From Trueperaceae bacterium (GTDB lineage Bacteria > Deinococcota > Deinococci > Deinococcales > Trueperaceae), in the NCBI GenBank assembly GCA_040905465.1, contig JBBDRK010000017.1, forward strand, positions 107,729 to 171,728: a DNA stretch of 64,000 bases. Direction: 5' to 3'. Under the pieces are notes generated by a model. That model was not told the DNA's origin and made no database searches. It saw nothing but the letters and a program-made list of their open reading frames with translations. Positions 8,107 through 56,119 of this stretch are shown here, one piece after another. The stretch's first letter is position 1. The number at the start of each line of letters is the position of its first letter. Made by a program: the position numbers and the translations under genes.

Positions 8107-10595
8107 TCAAACATCCGCGAGCGACTCCAGAGCAAACCCGACCGCACCGCGCAGATCCATGCCCCGCCCCCGCGACCAGCCGGCTTCGAAAGCCTCATGG
8201 CCGCTCCGGCCTTGTCGCCCAGCTTCTCCGACATGGCCAGGCTCTCCTCCAGCATCGCGCCGGCTTCGTCGAACCGGCCCTGCAGGCTGTAGAGAATCCC
8301 CAACTCGGCGAGCCCCAACGAAACGCCCGCCTCGTCACCGGTCTCGCGGGCAACGGCCAGGCCCTGCGAGAAAAGTTCCTCCGCCAGGCCGTACTCGCCC
8401 ACGTACAAGGCGTTGTCGGCCTGTTCGTTCAACGCCAGGAACTCCGTCTTCCGGTCCCCCACTTCTCGCGCCACCGCAAGCGCTTCTTCGGAGAATGCGC
8501 GGCCAAGCTCGATCTCGCCCTGCAGTGTCGCCTTCAAGCCGGCACCTCGTAACGCCTTCGCCCGGGCGGCGGTTCGTTGTGGGGTAGGAATCGCCAGAAC
8601 CCGGCCCAGCCACTCGCGCGGCTCGGACACCATTCCCCGCCAACCCCAATACCAGTTCAGGGAACCGGCGAGCCTCAGACCCAACTCGGCCTGAACGCTC
8701 GACTCCGCCCAATCTAGAGCGGCCCGGAAGTTGTCGTACTCGGCCCCCACCCGCGCCAACCACGACTCTTGCTGAGGGGTGAAGTCGTGCTCCCCGGCTT
8801 CCTCCGACATCGAGGCGAAGTATCCGGCATGCCTGTCCTTCACCTCGCGCTCCTCGTCCGGGTGCTCGGCCAGCTTCTCGCTGCTGAACTGATAGAGCAG
8901 CGGGTGCTGGTCGTAGCGCCCTGTTGCCGAGACGCGCAGGAGCGACTTGTCGATGAGCGCCGCCAGGACGGGTATGGTCGAGCCGGCGACGAAGGCAGCC
9001 GCTTCCCGGCGGAATCCTCCACGGAAGGCCGCCAACTTCCGCAAAACAACCTTTTCCCGTTCCGTCAGGAGTGTCCACGAATGCTCGAAGGCGGCACGAA
9101 TGCTGTGGTGACGGTCCGGTGCGTTCCGGTTGCCGCCGCCGAGGAAGTCCAGATTACGGGCTACCTCCAGCGCAATGTCGGCCACCGGCAGGACCCGGAC
9201 CCAGACTGCAGCGAGCTCCAGCCCCAGCGGCAAACCGTCAATGAGCCGGCAGATCTCGAGAAGGTGCGGCAGCTCCTCCTGGCCCAGGCCGAAGCCGGGC
9301 CTCACCTGCCGCGCACGGGCCAGGAAGAAGCGGACCGCGTCGAACGCCTGTGCCTCTTCCGCGGAGGCTGTTGGCACCGGGTAGGCTAGCCCGCTCAGCG
9401 GCATCAACCACTCCTCGGCCAGGCCGAGGCGTTCGCGCGAAGTGACGAGCAGATCGATGCCGGGACAGGCCCTCAGCAGCGCTGCCGGTATGGCCGCTTC
9501 GTCGAGGAGCTGTTCGTAATTGTCGAGCACCAAAAGCATCCGCGCATTGGCGAGTGCGCCGGTAACCTGCGCCAGAGGGTCGGCCTTGCCCTCGAGCGCG
9601 ATCTCCAGCTCGGAGGCGATCGCGAGGGGAACGCTGGCCGAAGATACGGCGGAGTCCAGCGGCACGAAGTGAGCGCCATCGCGGTAGCTTCCCCGCAACT
9701 CCGTGGCCGCCTGCAGCGCCAGCCGCGTTTTTCCCACGCCCCCGGGGCCGGTCAACGTAACCAGCCGGTGTGAAGACTGGCTCAGCATACTGATCAGTTC
9801 GCCCAGCTCCAGGTCGCGGCCCAGAAAGGTGCTGTGGGGGGAGCCCCTGATGCTTCTGGCGGCCCCGGCTATGCCTGGCGATCTCGGTGCCGGTACAGGA
9901 CGGCCGGTGCCAACCGAGGCGACTTCGGGAGACGCCTCCCTGGGGGCTGCTAGGTTCGGCCGCAGCTCCCTCCTGCTGTTGGCCCACCTGCGCCTGCTGG
10001 TCGGCCAACTGTTCCTGGATCGCCTGCTCGAGCCTCTCGGTAGCGGAGGCGGGCGTCAGATCCAGCTTCTCCGCAAGCGTCTTGCTGAAGTTGTGATAGT
10101 GCCTCGAGGCAAGTTTCGGCTGTCCGCTCTGCGCGAGAAGGCGCATGATCGACTGCAGCGCATCCTCGTCCAGCGGGTCCTGGGCCAGCAGGCCCTCCGG
10201 CACTTTTACCGCTTCAGAGATTCTGTCGGCGTCCTCGATTTCCGCCGACCGGCGGAAGGCGGCGGTTCGGTACGATTCCTTGAGGACTTCCCGTTCCATC
10301 TCCAGCCAGGTGGCGAACTCTCCGGTACCATCGAAGCTCGCGCCGCCGAACAAGTCGCCCCGATAGAGGCGAGACCTTCGTCCCAGGCCTCGTTCTCCAC
10401 CGCCGATCTGAACGCCTCGACGTCGCACTCCACTCGCCAGCGCAGCCGGGTGTTCTCGGCGTCCAAATCGCGTGCGAACGGCAGGTTCCTGCAACGCGCC
10501 AGGAGGCCGCGCAGGTTGGTGCGCGCCTGCTCGTTGCCGGCGTCGGGCCAGAACAGGAACGCCAGCTTCTCGCGCTCCACCCAGCCGCCTTCCGC
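8107..10595 (-). pseudogene. Disrupted AfsR/SARP-type BTAD-ATPase-TPR regulator
   Basis: wHTH remnant WVEREKLAFLFWPD; frameshift ~10375 into BTAD (LYRGDL...DPLDE); shift between ~9840 and ~10000 into P-loop LTGPGGVGKTRLA, then TPRs. The C-terminus HEAFEAGWSRGRGMDLRGAVGFAL is in another frame ending at 8107. The 5' end is missing. Confidence 0.8.
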
Positions 10596-50338: not shown

Positions 50339-53311
50339 CTAGGCGTCCACCTCCACCGTCTTGCCCTCCATGTGGGTGAACACCAGCAGTGGGACGTCGT
50401 GCAACTCCTGTCGGGCTGTTGCCTGGCCCAGGCGGTTCGGCCCCGAAAACCGAACGACGGTAAGCCGATTGAGGCCGAAGACCGGATATGCGTAAAGCGT
50501 CTCGATCCTCCCGGGAGGTGCCGCCAGAGTCGCCTCTACGTTCAACGACCGGGAAAACTCCCTGCGATAACTCGCCGATCGCCGGGCCGCGTGTGTCATC
50601 TGCTCGGTCAGGCTACGCGACTGCGTCACGCTGTGAGTGGCGCTCGCGCCCACCTCGAACCCGAGCTGCACCACCTTGTCGATGCCTAACTTGAACTTCT
50701 CCTCCACCTTGACGGTATCGGTCCGGGAGGACCCGACCGTTAGGCTCTTGCTTCCTGAGATCGTCACTTCTCCGGTTCGCTCGTCGGCTTCCGAGGTGCT
50801 GGCGCTGAAGGCGACCTTGATTGGCGAGGTGTTGCTTCGAGAGAATTCGTGCCCGTAGATCGAGTGCCAGTACAAGATGTGTCGCGGATCGTTGAAGCGT
50901 ACCTGCCGCTCGAACCGCCGGGTGGAGCTATAAAGCATCTCGAGGGGATGCACGAGGTAAAAGGCCAGCGTTCGACGCGTGAAGTGATAGCGCCTGCTGC
51001 CTCCGATGCCCTGACGCCAGTGGAACTCCACCTCGAGCCGGGCCAGGGGGTTGTCGGGATCCGTCTGGTAGGCGCGTTCGAGGGTCTGCCGCTTCAGCTT
51101 CAACGACAAGTCCCGGTGCTCGCCCGCGCGAAGCGGATCACTGGACCAACGCAGGTACTCACCCTGCTGATTGTCGAGGGGCACCGTCACGAATCTCCGT
51201 TGCGGGCCACTTCCGACAGCGCTGCTGAACCGTAGTTTCAGCCAGGTGGCGTCGAACCTCGTTTGCGAGTTGTTGCTGATTCGCAGCGGGAAAACGGCTT
51301 CCGTTCCCTCCGGTGCGCCAGTCACCAGGTAGTAGAGGTGCGGCCGGTTGTCGCTGCCCGGCACCAGAGTGAGGTCGCGCCACTCCAGCGTCGCCGCTCC
51401 GTTGATCGTCGGAAGCTGCAGTCTCGTCTGCTGCTCGGGGTAGCCCGAACTCTCGACGACGGTCTCTTCGTTGATGGAATCCATCTCTCCTCCGGTTGGG
51501 TAGTCAGCTGTCGGGTGATAGTTGCCGGTTGCCAGGTAGCGCCGCGTTGCGTTGATTGCCGCGGCGGCGTCGATGCAGCCCGCTCCGTAACGGAATCCGT
51601 GTAACGGCGTTGCGCCCTCGGGAAGCTGCGCCGTTCGCAGCAGAAGATCGCGAACGGTCTCCGCCGGCAGGCGCCTCTCGCCGGCGAGCTCCATGATCAG
51701 CGCGGCAACGCCGCAGACGTGCGGTGATGCCATGCTGGTTCCGCTCTTGATTGTCACGCCGCCGATGGAACGGCGGCCGAGAAGATCGATCACCGTCGAG
51801 CGTGCCGCTCTTATCCGCGCGCCCGGCGCCACGCACAGCGGCACCTGGCGGCCGTCCCGAGTCGGCCCGGAACTGCTGAACTCGGCCAGCGGGAACTGCG
51901 GCCGGTTCGGGTCGTACGCACCCACGGCGATCGTGTGGCGCCCACTGCAGATCGTGCCCAGCGTGGTGAGCGGGTCGGCGTCATCGGGATGAAATCGGGA
52001 TTGACTGTTCGTCGCATCTCGTTCGATGAACGCGTGGAAGTTGCCGTTGCGGACCGAACCCGAACGAAGGTTGACGGTCCAGGTGCCGGGCGGCGCCGCT
52101 GGCCACAGGAAGATGTCGATCTGATTGTCCTCGTTGTTCGGATCGTCCTGCCTGTTGTAGACCGACGCGAGAACAATGCCTCGGTCGCGAACGATTTCGG
52201 TGGCACCGACCGGCACTGTGGCGAGTGTCCGGCCGCCCGGGTCTATCAGCTCGACGGTGATCTCGTCGCTGCCCGGGTACCAGACTTCCAGTTCAGACAC
52301 CTCCGCTGTGCGAGCGGGGACCTCCCAACGAAGTCGTGCAGACCCGCCGTCGGTGAGTCGGCCGCTGGCGTGCAATCGTTCTCCGAAGTAATTACCGGTG
52401 CTCATGCACACGACGGTTCCGGGGCGCTCTTCGAGTATTGCGTCGAGGCCGCGTTCCACCAGCGAGGTCCCGTCTTTCGGCCCTCCGGTGCTTCCCAAGC
52501 TGCAATTGATCACAACCGGTCTGCCTTCGGCGCGTTGGAGGATGTAGTCGACAGCCTCGAGCAGGCGGACGGAATCGCCGAGGGTGTCCTCGGGGCCTAT
52601 GTCGCGTCCCTTGAGGTGAACGAATATCAGCTCCGCCTCGGGCGCCACGCCTGCCACTCCGCCCGAGCCCCGTCCGTTTCCTGCCGCAATCGACATGACG
52701 TGAGTGCCGTGGGTGCCGAAGGCCAGGCGATCTATCCCGGCAGGATCGTATCCCAGGTCGCTGTACGGGTCAGCCTGCGCCGCCGCTTCGCTCAACCGCT
52801 CTCGGCCGAACTCGCGCCCGTAGTCGTAGGGTCGTGGGCTGTTCGGATGAACGCCTCCTCGCTGGTCCCACAGGTACAGCAGGCGGCTCGATCCATCGTC
52901 TCGCAGGAAGTCGGGGTGGGCGAAGTCGCAGCCCCAGTCGATGATTCCGACTATCACGCCCCGGCCCGTCAAGGCGGTCTGGGCGGCAGCCGCAACTGTA
53001 TTCGGATCGGCCCTGATCGCCGGGATCGACACGTCCAGGTTGGGCGCGGCGACCTCGCGACTTGCTTTCAGCGAGGCGATGTTGGAGTGTTCGTGAAGCT
53101 CGACGATGCGGTCGAGTGGCAGCCGACCGGTCACTATCGGCCCGAGCCGGCTCACCACTCGCAGGTGGGGAATGTCGGCCTTGGGGTCGCGAAGCCGCAC
53201 GACCACCGCAACCTCCTCGACTTCCGCTCCCTCCTCGAACGCGCCCAACGGGTCGCCGGTTGCGCGTAGCAGTAGCTCCTTCAGCGCCGGGTCGAACTGG
53301 AGATCATCCAC
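50339..53311 (-). CDS. CspA-like S8 serine peptidase fused to a C-terminal Ig-like plus putative beta pore-forming module
   Basis: Triad IIDWG / HGTHV / GTSMAS; propeptide, jelly-roll insert, no signal peptide; AGGAGG SD; 381-aa extension with long Ser/Thr-rich beta strands. Confidence 0.88.
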   Translation of the reverse strand: MDDLQFDPALKELLLRATGDPLGAFEEGAEVEEVAVVVRLRDPKADIPHLRVVSRLGPIVTGRLPLDRIVELHEHSNIASLKASREVAAPNLDVSIPAIRADPNTVAAAAQTALTGRGVIVGIIDWGCDFAHPDFLRDDGSSRLLYLWDQRGGVHPNSPRPYDYGREFGRERLSEAAAQADPYSDLGYDPAGIDRLAFGTHGTHVMSIAAGNGRGSGGVAGVAPEAELIFVHLKGRDIGPEDTLGDSVRLLEAVDYILQRAEGRPVVINCSLGSTGGPKDGTSLVERGLDAILEERPGTVVCMSTGNYFGERLHASGRLTDGGSARLRWEVPARTAEVSELEVWYPGSDEITVELIDPGGRTLATVPVGATEIVRDRGIVLASVYNRQDDPNNEDNQIDIFLWPAAPPGTWTVNLRSGSVRNGNFHAFIERDATNSQSRFHPDDADPLTTLGTICSGRHTIAVGAYDPNRPQFPLAEFSSSGPTRDGRQVPLCVAPGARIRAARSTVIDLLGRRSIGGVTIKSGTSMASPHVCGVAALIMELAGERRLPAETVRDLLLRTAQLPEGATPLHGFRYGAGCIDAAAAINATRRYLATGNYHPTADYPTGGEMDSINEETVVESSGYPEQQTRLQLPTINGAATLEWRDLTLVPGSDNRPHLYYLVTGAPEGTEAVFPLRISNNSQTRFDATWLKLRFSSAVGSGPQRRFVTVPLDNQQGEYLRWSSDPLRAGEHRDLSLKLKRQTLERAYQTDPDNPLARLEVEFHWRQGIGGSRRYHFTRRTLAFYLVHPLEMLYSSTRRFERQVRFNDPRHILYWHSIYGHEFSRSNTSPIKVAFSASTSEADERTGEVTISGSKSLTVGSSRTDTVKVEEKFKLGIDKVVQLGFEVGASATHSVTQSRSLTEQMTHAARRSASYRREFSRSLNVEATLAAPPGRIETLYAYPVFGLNRLTVVRFSGPNRLGQATARQELHDVPLLVFTHMEGKTVEVDA

Positions 53312-53393: not shown

Positions 53394-53804
53394 TCAGGTG
53401 GATTCAACCGCAATGCTTTCGCCGGTCGTGCTGCGTGTATCCGTCGCCGGGATCGTATCCTGTGGCGCAGGCCCCGTCACCACGCCGACGGCCGAGTTCA
53501 GTACCTGGCGCAGAGAGGGGTTGCGCTCGAGCGCCTGGCGCAACACTGGAGCGCCTGCGATGTCGCTGTCTCGAATTGCGATCCTCGAAACTTTGGCCCT
53601 GGCGATGAGCTGTGCAGTCTCGCGGATTGCCGCCTCCTCCGCTCGCTCGGCACGCCGAACCTCCATGTCTGCGCTGACGGCAGTCAGGGCCTGTCTCTGC
53701 GACTCGTCTCCGACCGGCATCATGCCGAACGCCATCGCCTGGGAGAGCCGCTTCCGGCGCGACTTCTTGCTGTTGAACAGAAGCATGAGTGGTACGAGTT
53801 GCAC
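53394..53804 (-). CDS. Hypothetical protein (S8 operon)
   Basis: AAGGAG SD before GTG, 11 nt after the upstream stop; helical. Confidence 0.75.
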   Translation of the reverse strand: MQLVPLMLLFNSKKSRRKRLSQAMAFGMMPVGDESQRQALTAVSADMEVRRAERAEEAAIRETAQLIARAKVSRIAIRDSDIAGAPVLRQALERNPSLRQVLNSAVGVVTGPAPQDTIPATDTRSTTGESIAVEST

Positions 53805-53815
53805 GATTGTCTCCT

Positions 53816-54694
53816 TTAGTCGGCGAGGGCCATGAGCATGAAAGGAAGCATGTTGTCTCCTCCGCCTTGCTGGCCCATGAGGAGCGGCAGGAGCATCATC
53901 ATGCTGTTGTCGTCGCTGTCGACCGATTGCGAACTGCTGACCTCGACCAGATCACCGGTCGTGGCCCCGGTCGAATTGAGCACGACACCGCTGTGGGTGT
54001 GGGAGGTGATGTCGTCGCGGATGCGCTGCATCTGCATCATGCCGAGCATCAGGTTCATCATCGCCTGCGACGACTGCTCCTTCTTGAATGCGGCTAGTTC
54101 GCGCTTCTGCTGCCCCAGCACCTTGCGGGTGCTCAACCTGAATTTCGCCAGGTTGTCCTTGTTGCTCGCGGCCAAGACCGCAGTCTGGGTGATCCGCTGA
54201 CGCTCCTTGTGCAGGTCCGACTGAGTCCGGTTCAACCCGGTAGTGAGGTTGCCGATCTGAGTCTGCAGCTTCCTGGTCGTCGCGAGATACTGGGTGAGTG
54301 TGGGCACCGCGGCCGGAAGCTGCATCGAGGCGCTGCCACGGGGCGTGTTCAGCCGGGCAGTTCGGACCCCGCCGCCCCCACTCGCTGCCGGGGCGGGCCT
54401 ACGAAACTGGCGAGGCCTGCTGGGAGCCTTGAAGAGATTGGAGACGCTGCGGATCCCATTGATGGCGGTCGTGGCGGCTCCGCTTATCAGCGGCGCGGCC
54501 AGGCCGGCCAGGAACTCGGCTTCCGTCGATTCATCGTCGTAGTCGTAATCGTCTTCTGCCGCGAACGTCTCGTCGTCGTCATCGTCATAATCGTATTCCG
54601 CGAGTACGGCGTTCTCGAATGCCTCGTCGTCATAGCCGGATTCTGTGAAGGGAGCGTTCTCCGCGAACGCCTGAGTCGAGGTGCTACCGTTCAT
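53816..54694 (-). CDS. Hypothetical protein: acidic leader, amphipathic helix, coiled coil, HxH motif, Met-rich tail
   Basis: AAGGAGG SD; overlaps the upstream gene by 11 nt. Confidence 0.8.
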   Translation of the reverse strand: MNGSTSTQAFAENAPFTESGYDDEAFENAVLAEYDYDDDDDETFAAEDDYDYDDESTEAEFLAGLAAPLISGAATTAINGIRSVSNLFKAPSRPRQFRRPAPAASGGGGVRTARLNTPRGSASMQLPAAVPTLTQYLATTRKLQTQIGNLTTGLNRTQSDLHKERQRITQTAVLAASNKDNLAKFRLSTRKVLGQQKRELAAFKKEQSSQAMMNLMLGMMQMQRIRDDITSHTHSGVVLNSTGATTGDLVEVSSSQSVDSDDNSMMMLLPLLMGQQGGGDNMLPFMLMALAD

Positions 54695-55154
54695 CGAAAT
54701 CCTCCTTCGGGCCGTTGATTCGGCCGGTCGTTCTCTTCTGTAGCGGGACGACGTCCAGCCCTACGCTGTGCAGGGCGGGAAGGACCCAGGCGAGAAGCTC
54801 ATTGCGATCCGCCGTACGCGAGCCGGGACCGCCGGCGCCTGCGCATTGCGGGCAGGATCGTTCCCTGCCCCAGCAGAGCTCGCAAGAACCGAAGACTTCG
54901 GCGATGTATGAGATGGCTCCGGCGGCCTCCTCCAGTTGTTGACGGAGGATCCGCCCGGTGCGGCGACTCCGGTTCAGCTTCGCCTGGAAGTCCTCTGCCG
55001 AATCCTGACCTCCTCCCTGGTTTCGTTGTTGAAGCAGAGTGGCGAGCATGGCGGCTTTCGGATTGCCCTGGAACAGCGCTTCCATGTCGGCTGCAGGAGA
55101 CTGCCCTTCGCCTCCCATCTGTCGGAGCATCTGACTCATCAAGCTAGGGTCCAC
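54684..55154 (-). CDS. Hypothetical protein with CxxC-x6-CxxCxGxG putative zinc finger
   Basis: GGAGG SD; CELCWGRERSCPQCAGAGG; Met-rich N-terminus and coiled coil. Confidence 0.8.
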   Translation of the reverse strand: MDPSLMSQMLRQMGGEGQSPAADMEALFQGNPKAAMLATLLQQRNQGGGQDSAEDFQAKLNRSRRTGRILRQQLEEAAGAISYIAEVFGSCELCWGRERSCPQCAGAGGPGSRTADRNELLAWVLPALHSVGLDVVPLQKRTTGRINGPKEDFDER

Positions 55155-55186
55155 ATTCCCCTCCGTTCCCGTGCAGGTTCCTGCAG

Positions 55187-56119
55187 TTACGGCGTGTCTG
55201 GTTGCTGGTCCTCGATCGGCCAGTCCTCATCGATCCATGTTTCGGGATCCCCCTCCTCTCCGGCGGGCCACCTCTCCGGCGTGAAGTCGCTGGACAAGCT
55301 TTCGCGGTCTTCGAAGCGGTTCTCGGATTGCAACGACTCCCAGGTGTCGCCGGAACCGTCCGGCGTAAACGCCTCCTGCCGGGCGAAAGCCAGCGCCTCG
55401 AACATTTGCTCGCCCTCTGCGAGACCGCCTGCAAGGCTCTGTTCGCGTGCGGCGCCGGGCTGTCCGGAGGTGACCGCCGAGAAGGCTTTGAGGCCGACCG
55501 GTACCGCCTTCAGCAGCAGGGGGAGGAGTTGCGCGATAATGGGCAGGACGACCGGCAGCAACTGGAGCAGGATAGGGACCACGGCTCCGACGGCCTCGGC
55601 ATCGTGCTCGAGATCGGCTTCGATCGCCTCGAGTCGCTCGAGCGCTTCGCGCTCTGCGCTCTGCAAGGGCCGCTGCGCGAACGCTCCGATCAGTTGGGGA
55701 ACGAGAGCAACGAGCTGCGGCAACAAGGCGGCGAGATGATGTACGAGTTCCGGAGGCACGCCGGGTGCAGCCGTTGGATGGGCTGCATTGGCGGCCGGAG
55801 ACGGTGGCTGACGGCTTGCCGCCGGAGGCCGGGAGGGCGCTGTCGGAGGGATAGGTGAAGCCTGCGGGGCGGGGCGAGGCGAGGGCTTGCGGCCTTGTTG
55901 CTGTGCGGTGTTCACCGCACCCATCGTCCCGCCGATCAAGCCTCCCGCGAGCGCGCCCCACGGGCCTGCGCCCAACCCGGCGGCCGCGCCGCTGGCCGCA
56001 CCGCCGCCGATCCCCTTGATCCAGTCGAGCACATCCTCGGCCGACTCCGCGGGGCCTTGCGCCGCCTCGCTGAGCCAGTCGAGCGCTTCGGAAGTCGATT
56101 CGCCGTTCAGTTGGTACAT
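55187..56119 (-). CDS. Hypothetical protein with glycine zipper and hydrophobic/amphipathic helices separated by acidic spacers
   Basis: GGGAASGAAAGLGAGPWGALAGGLIGG; VVPILLQLLPVVLPIIAQLLPLLLK; TGATG coupling. Confidence 0.8.
   Translation of the reverse strand: MYQLNGESTSEALDWLSEAAQGPAESAEDVLDWIKGIGGGAASGAAAGLGAGPWGALAGGLIGGTMGAVNTAQQQGRKPSPRPAPQASPIPPTAPSRPPAASRQPPSPAANAAHPTAAPGVPPELVHHLAALLPQLVALVPQLIGAFAQRPLQSAEREALERLEAIEADLEHDAEAVGAVVPILLQLLPVVLPIIAQLLPLLLKAVPVGLKAFSAVTSGQPGAAREQSLAGGLAEGEQMFEALAFARQEAFTPDGSGDTWESLQSENRFEDRESLSSDFTPERWPAGEEGDPETWIDEDWPIEDQQPDTP

Follow-up and report, generated by a model that had tools for sequence, protein, structure and literature searches.

Does the C-terminal part of a subtilase gene of a Trueperaceae bacterium encode a pore-forming module of the aerolysin type, and to which membrane would such a module be directed? 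The question concerns P0001, a protein of 990 amino acids (aa) encoded on a 64,000-nucleotide stretch of contig JBBDRK010000017.1 (hereafter, the window), for which an earlier note, made from the sequence alone, had proposed an aerolysin/ETX-MTX2-like module behind a protease. Our results suggest an undescribed cell-lysing device, because the module is most similar to the membrane-piercing portion of aerolysin-type toxins and its companions are enzymes that degrade cell walls and lipids. The module is probably distantly related to the aerolysin/ETX-MTX2 pore-forming module. We propose, at about an even chance, that P0001 is a latent effector within a bacterial lysis cassette, linked to a protease and perforating membranes in the manner of aerolysin; its target membrane, its activation and its pore formation are inferred.

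The P0001 Gene and Its Ser/Thr-Rich Hairpin Region

The translated part of the 990-codon open reading frame (ORF) occupies window positions 50342-53311 on the minus strand and contains all of the peptide strings quoted earlier. An identical 990-aa protein (P0002) is present in large protein collections, so that P0001 is regarded as a called, real gene. Relatives are encoded in six public genomes. The gene and the region in question are located as follows:

50339..53311, minus strand: whole gene P0001, 990 aa, with a prodomain-like N-terminus, an S8 subtilase, a linker and a two-domain module (ORF list, translation, Pfam, identical protein on record)
50510..50821, minus strand: Ser/Thr-rich period-2 region, residues 831-934, where the alignments with parasporin-2, monalysin, PA-63, Cry23 and epsilon-toxin lie
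50621..50722, minus strand: central amphipathic hairpin, residues 864-897, with alternating hydrophobic arms and a conserved polar turn (D878-K879); putative membrane-inserting stem (family column hydropathy)

The motif had been reported at 50480-50850, and this range does cover residues 831-934 on the minus strand, the first of which opens the IKVAFSASTSE string (window 50821) and the last of which completes the final LAAPPG (window 50510). Ser and Thr account for 26% of residues 831-934 versus 12.6% elsewhere, and this is the richest stretch of about 100 aa in P0001. In P0001 alone, the beta-amphipathic period of the two hairpin arms was marginal (p = 0.044 and 0.034), and residues 898-921 of the single sequence were better fitted by a helical periodicity (p = 0.003). 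The pattern was also evaluated in the alignment columns of 50 homologues. Excluding the query, Ser/Thr made up 33% of module columns 224-323 versus 12.6% and 10.6% in the flanking columns. Ser/Thr alternated with a period of two in all five segments (column-shuffle p <= 0.0004 in three of them and <= 0.018 in the other two), as did the mean hydropathy in each arm of the hairpin (p = 0.0008 and 0.029). The sequence columns of the family thus contain the amphipathic hairpin with Ser/Thr-rich flanking strands that is characteristic of aerolysin/ETX-MTX2 toxins, and the hairpin with its conserved polar turn and period-2 Ser/Thr flanks is kept across relatives of 17-43% identity. Such a hairpin, combined with terminal proteolytic activation, is described as common to parasporin-2, ETX, aerolysin, alpha-toxin and MTX in PMC4179158.

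A chance or low-complexity pattern of one sequence, without structural meaning, would be in line with the marginal single-sequence moments (p 0.03-0.04) and with the high bias term reported by HMMER. This explanation is hardly credible: it is already contradicted by the column-by-column conservation in the 50 homologues, the region is predicted as ordered strands, and 44 family representatives are found at E <= 1e-10.

Predicted Structure of the C-Terminal Module

AlphaFold2 (AF2) was used to model the C-terminal 383 aa of P0001 from a 51-row alignment and, in a second model, residues 788-990 alone. The 383-aa model reached a mean predicted local distance difference test score (pLDDT) of 88.5 and a predicted template modelling score of 0.82, and consisted of a linker, a beta-sandwich and an elongated beta domain:

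50951..51403, minus strand: beta-sandwich (Ig/arrestin-like), residues 637-787; all strands, AF2 pLDDT 92-98 (module residues 30-180)
50342..50950, minus strand: elongated beta domain, putative pore-forming module, residues 788-990 (AF2 models, Foldseek ranking, ESM Atlas)

The 'Ig-like segment' said to precede the motif was thereby recovered as a beta-sandwich with a pLDDT of about 97; the strings quoted for it span residues 676-737, LRISNNS beginning at residue 676 and DLSL at residue 734. This sandwich may serve as a receptor binder and the subtilase as the activating protease. One compact globular sandwich, the outcome which the earlier note had named as speaking against its proposal, was not predicted by AF2 for the last 203 aa. 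The terminal hairpin strands of the elongated domain measured 22 and 24 residues in the whole-module model and 24 and 26 residues in the subdomain model, which contained the same elements at a pLDDT of 81.6. Strands of 24 and 26 residues at pLDDT 92-97 correspond, in prediction, to the long antiparallel strands of the aerolysin/ETX-MTX2 type. Within the putative stem (residues 864-897), AF2 confidence ranged between 55 and 87, and the segment was partly drawn as helical. A four-copy complex prediction of the 203-aa subdomain yielded a median score of 0.15 (mark 0.42), which counts neither for nor against self-association.

Foldseek searches of the PDB with the whole module returned transglutaminase C-terminal barrels, VPS26/TXNIP arrestins, Spo0M and the Kir cytoplasmic domain (E 8e-6 to 4e-4, template modelling (TM) score about 0.2), and the search against BFVD only tail proteins, Ig-like proteins and uncharacterised proteins, all at low TM.

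Similarity to Aerolysin-Type Pore Formers

Both of the matches obtained with phmmer for the module among PDB sequences were aerolysin-type (parasporin-2, E 0.63; natterin-like, E 1.5). The family profile gave 17 PDB matches at E <= 10, five of which were located on the patatin domain of some members (VipD, ExoU) and 12 on the module. Without exception, these 12 were beta-pore formers or entries labelled 'Toxin', and all of them aligned to the Ser/Thr hairpin region, with the following E-values:

parasporin-2 (2ZTB): 2.3e-4
monalysin: 0.019
PA-63: 0.05-0.076
Cry23Aa1: 0.7
7Y79: 0.89
epsilon-toxin: 1.3-2.9

A profile of 15 distant members, built without the query, likewise retrieved such toxins in 11 of its 14 matches (PA-63, 0.003; monalysin, 0.021; parasporin-2, 0.034). 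When the last 203 aa were compared with the PDB by Foldseek, 20 of the 46 rows listed were aerolysin-type entries, representing about ten different proteins, among them a Bombina aerolysin-like protein (prob 0.60), lysenin, Dln1, a lamprey natterin-like protein, aerolysin, parasporin-2, LSL and CPE. HA3/HA70 and a Salpingoeca lectin in this list were presumed to belong to the aerolysin-type class as well. Furthermore, all family-bearing sets shown by the ESM Atlas feature search were Aerolysin, ETX_MTX2 or monalysin BB_PF, at scores of 0.91-0.93, where values near 0.93 also arise for 4-10% of shuffled proteins. A search for the ETX_MTX2 family found nothing in 21 related genomes or 14 control genomes.

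Several results weigh against an aerolysin-like effector. AF2 draws residues 877-918 as three helices with a pLDDT of 51-87 (55-87 for module residues 270-312 in the 383-aa model) and not as a beta hairpin, and the whole-module Foldseek list is led by Ig/arrestin-type sandwiches, which match the sandwich domain. For the last 203 aa, Foldseek found no PDB match at E <= 1e-3 (best E 0.03). The best aerolysin-type row had E 0.037, prob 0.60 and TM scores of 0.24-0.31, and TM scores were generally 0.2-0.3 with root-mean-square deviations of 13-22 Å. In the Atlas structure search, aerolysin/ETX families occupied four of ten rows (TM 0.39-0.44), with unnamed lipoprotein clusters ranking higher. The PDB profile matches span only 60-100 residues and are compositionally biased (score 22.7 bits, bias 14.7), and a profile of 12 closer members failed to reproduce the toxin matches (parasporin-2, E 2.8). 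Neither P0001 nor its module matched a model of the Pfam aerolysin clan (PF01117, PF03318, PF18063) at its gathering score or better, and Pfam ETX_MTX2 was seen in only two of the 50 members scanned, at E >= 0.51. Secretion is usual for known toxins of the aerolysin type, though not a strictly defining trait, whereas a signal-peptide-like N-terminus is absent from P0001 and 52 of its 53 relatives, as judged by a crude hydrophobicity heuristic applied to the N-termini. Finally, no sensor NTPase (nucleoside triphosphatase) or known defence family was detected in the cassette by Pfam and PADLOC.

The aerolysin-like proposal thus stood in part. Its layout holds in the AF2 models: behind a protease come a binding-type sandwich and then an elongated beta domain, whose amphipathic hairpin has Ser/Thr-rich flanks. 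Every similarity signal obtained for the last 203 aa leads to beta-pore formers of the aerolysin type or related ones; none of these signals is statistically firm. The same applies to the combination of AlphaFold and Foldseek suggested as a check for the C-terminus, where the elongated fold and the ranking of aerolysin-type rows agreed with the proposal and the E-values fell short. We regard an aerolysin-type fold of the elongated domain as rather probable, and the actual formation of pores by the module as evenly balanced. Membership of the module in the Pfam aerolysin clan cannot be demonstrated, yet the best description is that it works like a member.

As an alternative, the module may be a non-pore beta-rich binding, scaffold or autoinhibitory unit, comparable to the beta domains often found at the C-termini of subtilases and of cell-wall hydrolases, its likeness to pore formers arising only from Ser/Thr-rich alternating strands. 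The ligand of such a unit could be the envelope, a polymer or a substrate. Ig/arrestin-type sandwiches as the best whole-module Foldseek matches, the unnamed lipoprotein, Big_9/cadherin and FG-GAP clusters as top Atlas structural neighbours, and the co-occurrence of the module with wall-binding PG_binding_1 and OmpA-type domains fit this explanation, as do the lack of a significant aerolysin-type match, structural or in Pfam, and the close-member profile without toxin matches. It does not sit well with the last 203 aa being elongated instead of forming a compact binding sandwich, with an amphipathic hairpin, polar turn and period-2 Ser/Thr pattern kept at 17-43% identity, and with three independent kinds of search on the hairpin region returning almost only pore formers. 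Overall, a mere binding unit is considered possible and rather doubtful.

Distribution of the Module Family and Its Domain Partners

The module belongs to a rare, unnamed family. Among 1.84 billion representatives searched with HMMER, 55 proteins were found at E <= 1e-3, 44 at E <= 1e-10 and 24 at E <= 1e-30. The module of about 350 aa occurs in proteins of 300-2400 aa and at varying positions, for example N-terminal in P0013 (17-389 of 867), central in P0010 (1314-1677 of 2185) and C-terminal in P0012 (859-1216 of 1231). Among the 50 members scanned with Pfam, the partner domains were S8 (17 members), Amidase_3 (5), patatin (4), PG_binding_1 (4) and Peptidase_C70 (2), whereas VanY, SLT, Amidase_2, OmpA, DUF2272, a PETase-like domain and Metallophos occurred in a single member each. 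Three members outside the 50-member alignment carried Amidase_3 together with VanY and C70, S8 together with patatin, and Amidase_3, respectively. Several amidase domains of the relatives begin at residue 1-9. The module is thus recombined among leaderless proteins with proteases, peptidoglycan hydrolases and phospholipases. Because these partners attack the bacterial envelope and the proteins lack an export signal, the common module is most simply explained as the membrane-handling part.

The only relative with a signal-peptide-like N-terminus is P0049, a stand-alone module of 375 aa. This protein, together with a domain order as in aerolysin-type toxins and the proteolytic activation usual in that family (PMC4179158), would be compatible with a classical secreted aerolysin-type exotoxin directed against eukaryotic cells, with the sandwich as receptor binder and the subtilase as activator. 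Such an exotoxin is very unlikely, because the partners of the module are hydrolases of the bacterial envelope, targeting peptidoglycan and lipids. In addition, the crude hydrophobicity test indicated no signal-peptide-like N-terminus for P0001 and 52 of 53 relatives, the cassette contains no secretion system genes, and the named hosts are environmental bacteria, except for one metagenome-assembled genome (MAG) titled as a dairy-cattle jejunum sample. In P0003 (671 aa), a strongly hydrophobic C-terminal segment was noticed near residue 609.

Within its own genome, the module is single-copy. It was not found in 300 other genomes sampled from the same phylum, two of which share its genus and about 100 its family. 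Full-length relatives that are closest come from gammaproteobacteria, which suggests horizontal acquisition. A literature search, which covered one collection of main texts, yielded no paper on an aerolysin-like module joined to subtilase, amidase or patatin domains; related family lists could be contained in the supplements of the papers cited here.

The Protease Part and the Linker

Upstream of the module, P0001 comprises two further parts:

51533..53311, minus strand: residues 1-593, a prodomain-like lead of about 100 aa, then the S8 catalytic domain (Pfam, NCBIfam, motif positions)
51404..51532, minus strand: linker between protease and module, residues 594-636, putative cleavage region (AF2, gene split in locus L002)

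The sole Pfam match of P0001 was Peptidase_S8 (PF00082; E 1.5e-34, 120 bits versus a cut-off of 21.8 bits). The motifs expected for an S8 protease follow each other in the order Asp, His and Ser at residues 125 (IIDWG), 201 (HGTHV) and 526 (GTSMASP), and are taken by us to represent the catalytic triad. The first ~100 aa are, from their sequence, a putative prodomain, and the stretch between the His and Ser motifs contains a Csp-like insert. The best partial NCBIfam matches of the protease (residues 105-545) were CspBA (E 5e-43) and CspC (E 1e-38). The scores were far below the family cut-offs (146.9 versus 1250 bits and 132.9 versus 675 bits; NF040809, NF040808), and the subtilase is therefore not a member of the Csp family. 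PADLOC assigned P0001 only to the generic 'subtilase' (E 9e-22) and to IetS (E 0.017).

For the linker, AF2 gave a pLDDT of 49-53 at module residues 1-20, and no secondary structure was predicted up to module residue 27. In the gammaproteobacterial locus L002, the S8 gene (596 aa) and a module-patatin gene (865 aa) are separate, the split lying at the linker point, and are translationally coupled: at 9953-9956, the TGA of the S8 gene overlaps the ATG of the module-patatin gene (ATGA), with AGGAGG located 5 nucleotides upstream. Protease and module can therefore be separated, yet they are coupled.

Proposed Mode of Action

The analysis shows the sequence pattern, the predicted fold, the distribution of the family, the domain partners, the synteny and the neighbouring regulators. 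Homology to aerolysin-type toxins, oligomerisation, pore formation and proteolytic licensing are all inferred, and the sequence of events given here is a proposal. The cassette, consisting of four genes for small proteins and the protease-module gene, would be switched on by its own activator. The subtilase, acting in cis or in trans, would then cleave either the flexible linker or a segment beside it, and the freed module would oligomerise. The hairpin of residues 864-897 and its Ser/Thr flanks would refold into a beta-barrel in a bacterial membrane, whereupon attached or neighbouring hydrolases would attack the envelope, leading to lysis. The target may be the producer's own membrane, reached from inside (suicide or abortive-infection type), or that of a neighbour after release (bacteriolysin type). 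A more specific version can be imagined, in which a cytoplasmic Csp-like subtilase in a self-contained, activator-gated cassette licenses an aerolysin-type beta-barrel pore that acts on the producer's own membrane from within, the module serves across the family to open the membrane so that the leaderless amidases, transglycosylases and phospholipases fused to it gain access to the envelope, and the four small proteins form a new sensing or restraining apparatus; taken as a whole, this version is speculative and improbable. Cleavage, oligomerisation and leakage constitute a directly testable hypothesis.

Comparison with Known Systems

To our knowledge, pore formers of the aerolysin type have been described as toxins that are secreted and as immune effectors of animals, plants or fungi. 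With aerolysin/ETX-MTX2 toxins, which were its top-ranking though weak neighbours in the sequence-profile, Foldseek and language-model searches, the module shares the order of a variable binding domain and an elongated beta part, the great length of the strands in the latter, an amphipathic hairpin with Ser/Thr-rich strands on either side, and a link to proteolysis (PMC4179158). Unlike these toxins, the module has no Pfam or significant structural match, a pre-stem partly predicted as helical and no signal peptide; it is embedded in multi-enzyme proteins, and its protease is fused to it and not supplied by target or host.

A similar logic to that proposed here is represented by the Csp subtilases of clostridial spore germination (CspB/CspBA/CspC), in which a protease activates a lysin: CspB cleaves and thereby activates the cortex-lytic enzyme pro-SleC. 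The context of P0001 is different and has no link to sporulation. In phage holin-endolysin cassettes, leaderless bacteriolysins and colicin-type bacteriocins, leaderless peptidoglycan hydrolases require a membrane lesion or lysis, and their expression is tightly regulated. Unlike in holin-endolysin cassettes and bacteriocins, the membrane-breaching and hydrolase functions would share one polypeptide in the family studied here; unlike in phage lysis cassettes, no phage genes, transfer RNA (tRNA) or repeats and no recognisable holin or immunity gene were found around the P0001 cassette.

Protease-licensed pore effectors have been documented in prokaryotic defence for Pepco, EACC1 and gasdermins (PMC12642450) and in fungi for the HET-Q1/HET-Q2 subtilisin pair (PMC8851545). 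In bacterial gasdermin, Pepco/EACC1 and HET-Q1/HET-Q2 systems, as proposed for P0001, a cytoplasmic protease is genetically linked to a latent membrane-permeabilising protein, and S8 proteases are used in such pairs (PMC12642450, PMC8851545). The putative P0001 effector fold differs from those of the gasdermin, Pepco and EACC1 systems in being aerolysin-like, and the protease carries no fused sensor domain, of the STAND type or otherwise. The features that define bGSDM/Pepco/EACC1/MBL anti-phage modules (effector family, sensor, PADLOC system hit) were not found in the P0001 cassette.

If true, the membrane-perforating effector proposed here would represent a leaderless bacterial family in which an aerolysin-type module is permanently joined to a protease and to enzymes that degrade peptidoglycan and lipids. 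It would also be a new class of effector for cell death licensed by proteases, a logic demonstrated recently with gasdermins, Pepco and EACC1 (PMC12642450). Acting as suicide from inside, it would be an 'aerolysin-based' counterpart of gasdermin-type cell death; in the alternative case, a large bacteriolytic weapon of a new type would be at hand. If the module were only a binding domain, the result would be an ordinary one. In any case, about 55 protein clusters and a conserved five-gene cassette, all without annotation, have been marked out.

The Cassette and Its Genomic Context

The six public loci encoding relatives originate from a gammaproteobacterial MAG, Pseudohongiella, Blastococcus, Microbulbifer yueqingensis, Brevundimonas and a Gemmatimonadales MAG. 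The three gammaproteobacterial loci (L002, L003 and L005) feature an S8-module-patatin architecture, distributed over two genes in L002, with a protease part 50% identical to that of P0001. As determined by tblastn, hidden Markov models (HMMs) and alignments, homologues of four small ORFs precede the protease gene in all three loci in the same order as in the window. The four-gene set upstream of the protease gene and its members are located as follows:

window 53394-56119 (minus strand); L002 5581-8129; L003 4384-7006; L005 5207-7888: complete four-gene small-protein set
53394..53804, minus strand: n136, listed with 136 aa, N-terminus rich in Met; homologues in L002, L003 and L005 (HMM E 1e-55 to 1e-59)
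53816..54694, minus strand: n292, with an acidic N-terminus, a conserved GGVR..TPRGSA motif, a coiled-coil-like middle and a Met-rich C-terminal tail (tblastn E 1e-27 to 4e-32 in L002, L003 and L005)
54684..55154, minus strand: n156, a zinc-ribbon-like protein whose four cysteines (CxxC-x6-CxxC) are invariant; homologues in L002, L003 and L005, domain in L006
55187..56119, minus strand: n310, with a conserved WGA..G glycine-zipper-like hydrophobic segment, a Pro-rich spacer and a second, LLP-rich hydrophobic segment; homologues in L002, L003 and L005
56194..57621, plus strand: divergent BTAD/SARP-type transcription activator, ORF as listed, the true start probably lying further downstream (Pfam BTAD, E 8e-20, residues 293-418)

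None of the four small proteins had a meaningful match in Pfam, PADLOC, NCBIfam or PHROGs. The n292 family comprises only 12 clusters among 5.8 billion, all of them unnamed, and the ESM Atlas search with n292 returned nothing above 0.86 and no family. Two of the four proteins carry striking Met-rich tails (MMMxLPLMM...MMMMM). By eye, an 'ALDWL'-type motif near the N-terminus of n310 was seen to recur at the N-termini of split module-patatin proteins (P0013, L002 9953-12550).

A dedicated transcription activator flanks the cassette in the window and in all three gammaproteobacterial loci, where sigma-54 activators adjoin it (L002 12570-13901, L003 1636-3051 and L005 12472-13491, each on the minus strand). 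In L005, the activator comprises 339 aa, and its AAA+ core is not preceded by an N-terminal sensor domain.

A mobile or phage origin of the cassette was considered and is not supported, its flanks consisting of ordinary metabolic and regulatory genes. No tRNA was detected in the 64-kb window, nor were convincing repeats or a clear guanine-cytosine anomaly around the cassette. Consensus scans for promoters and terminators remained at shuffle level. The searches also revealed no recognisable immunity gene or holin around the cassette and no secretion system genes within it.

Among the remaining loci, the Brevundimonas locus L006 (9872-12490) encodes a PF04185 phosphoesterase of the phospholipase-C type directly downstream of the module gene, and in L007 (3079-6075), from the Gemmatimonadales MAG, a 998-aa AAA ATPase is encoded two genes downstream of it.

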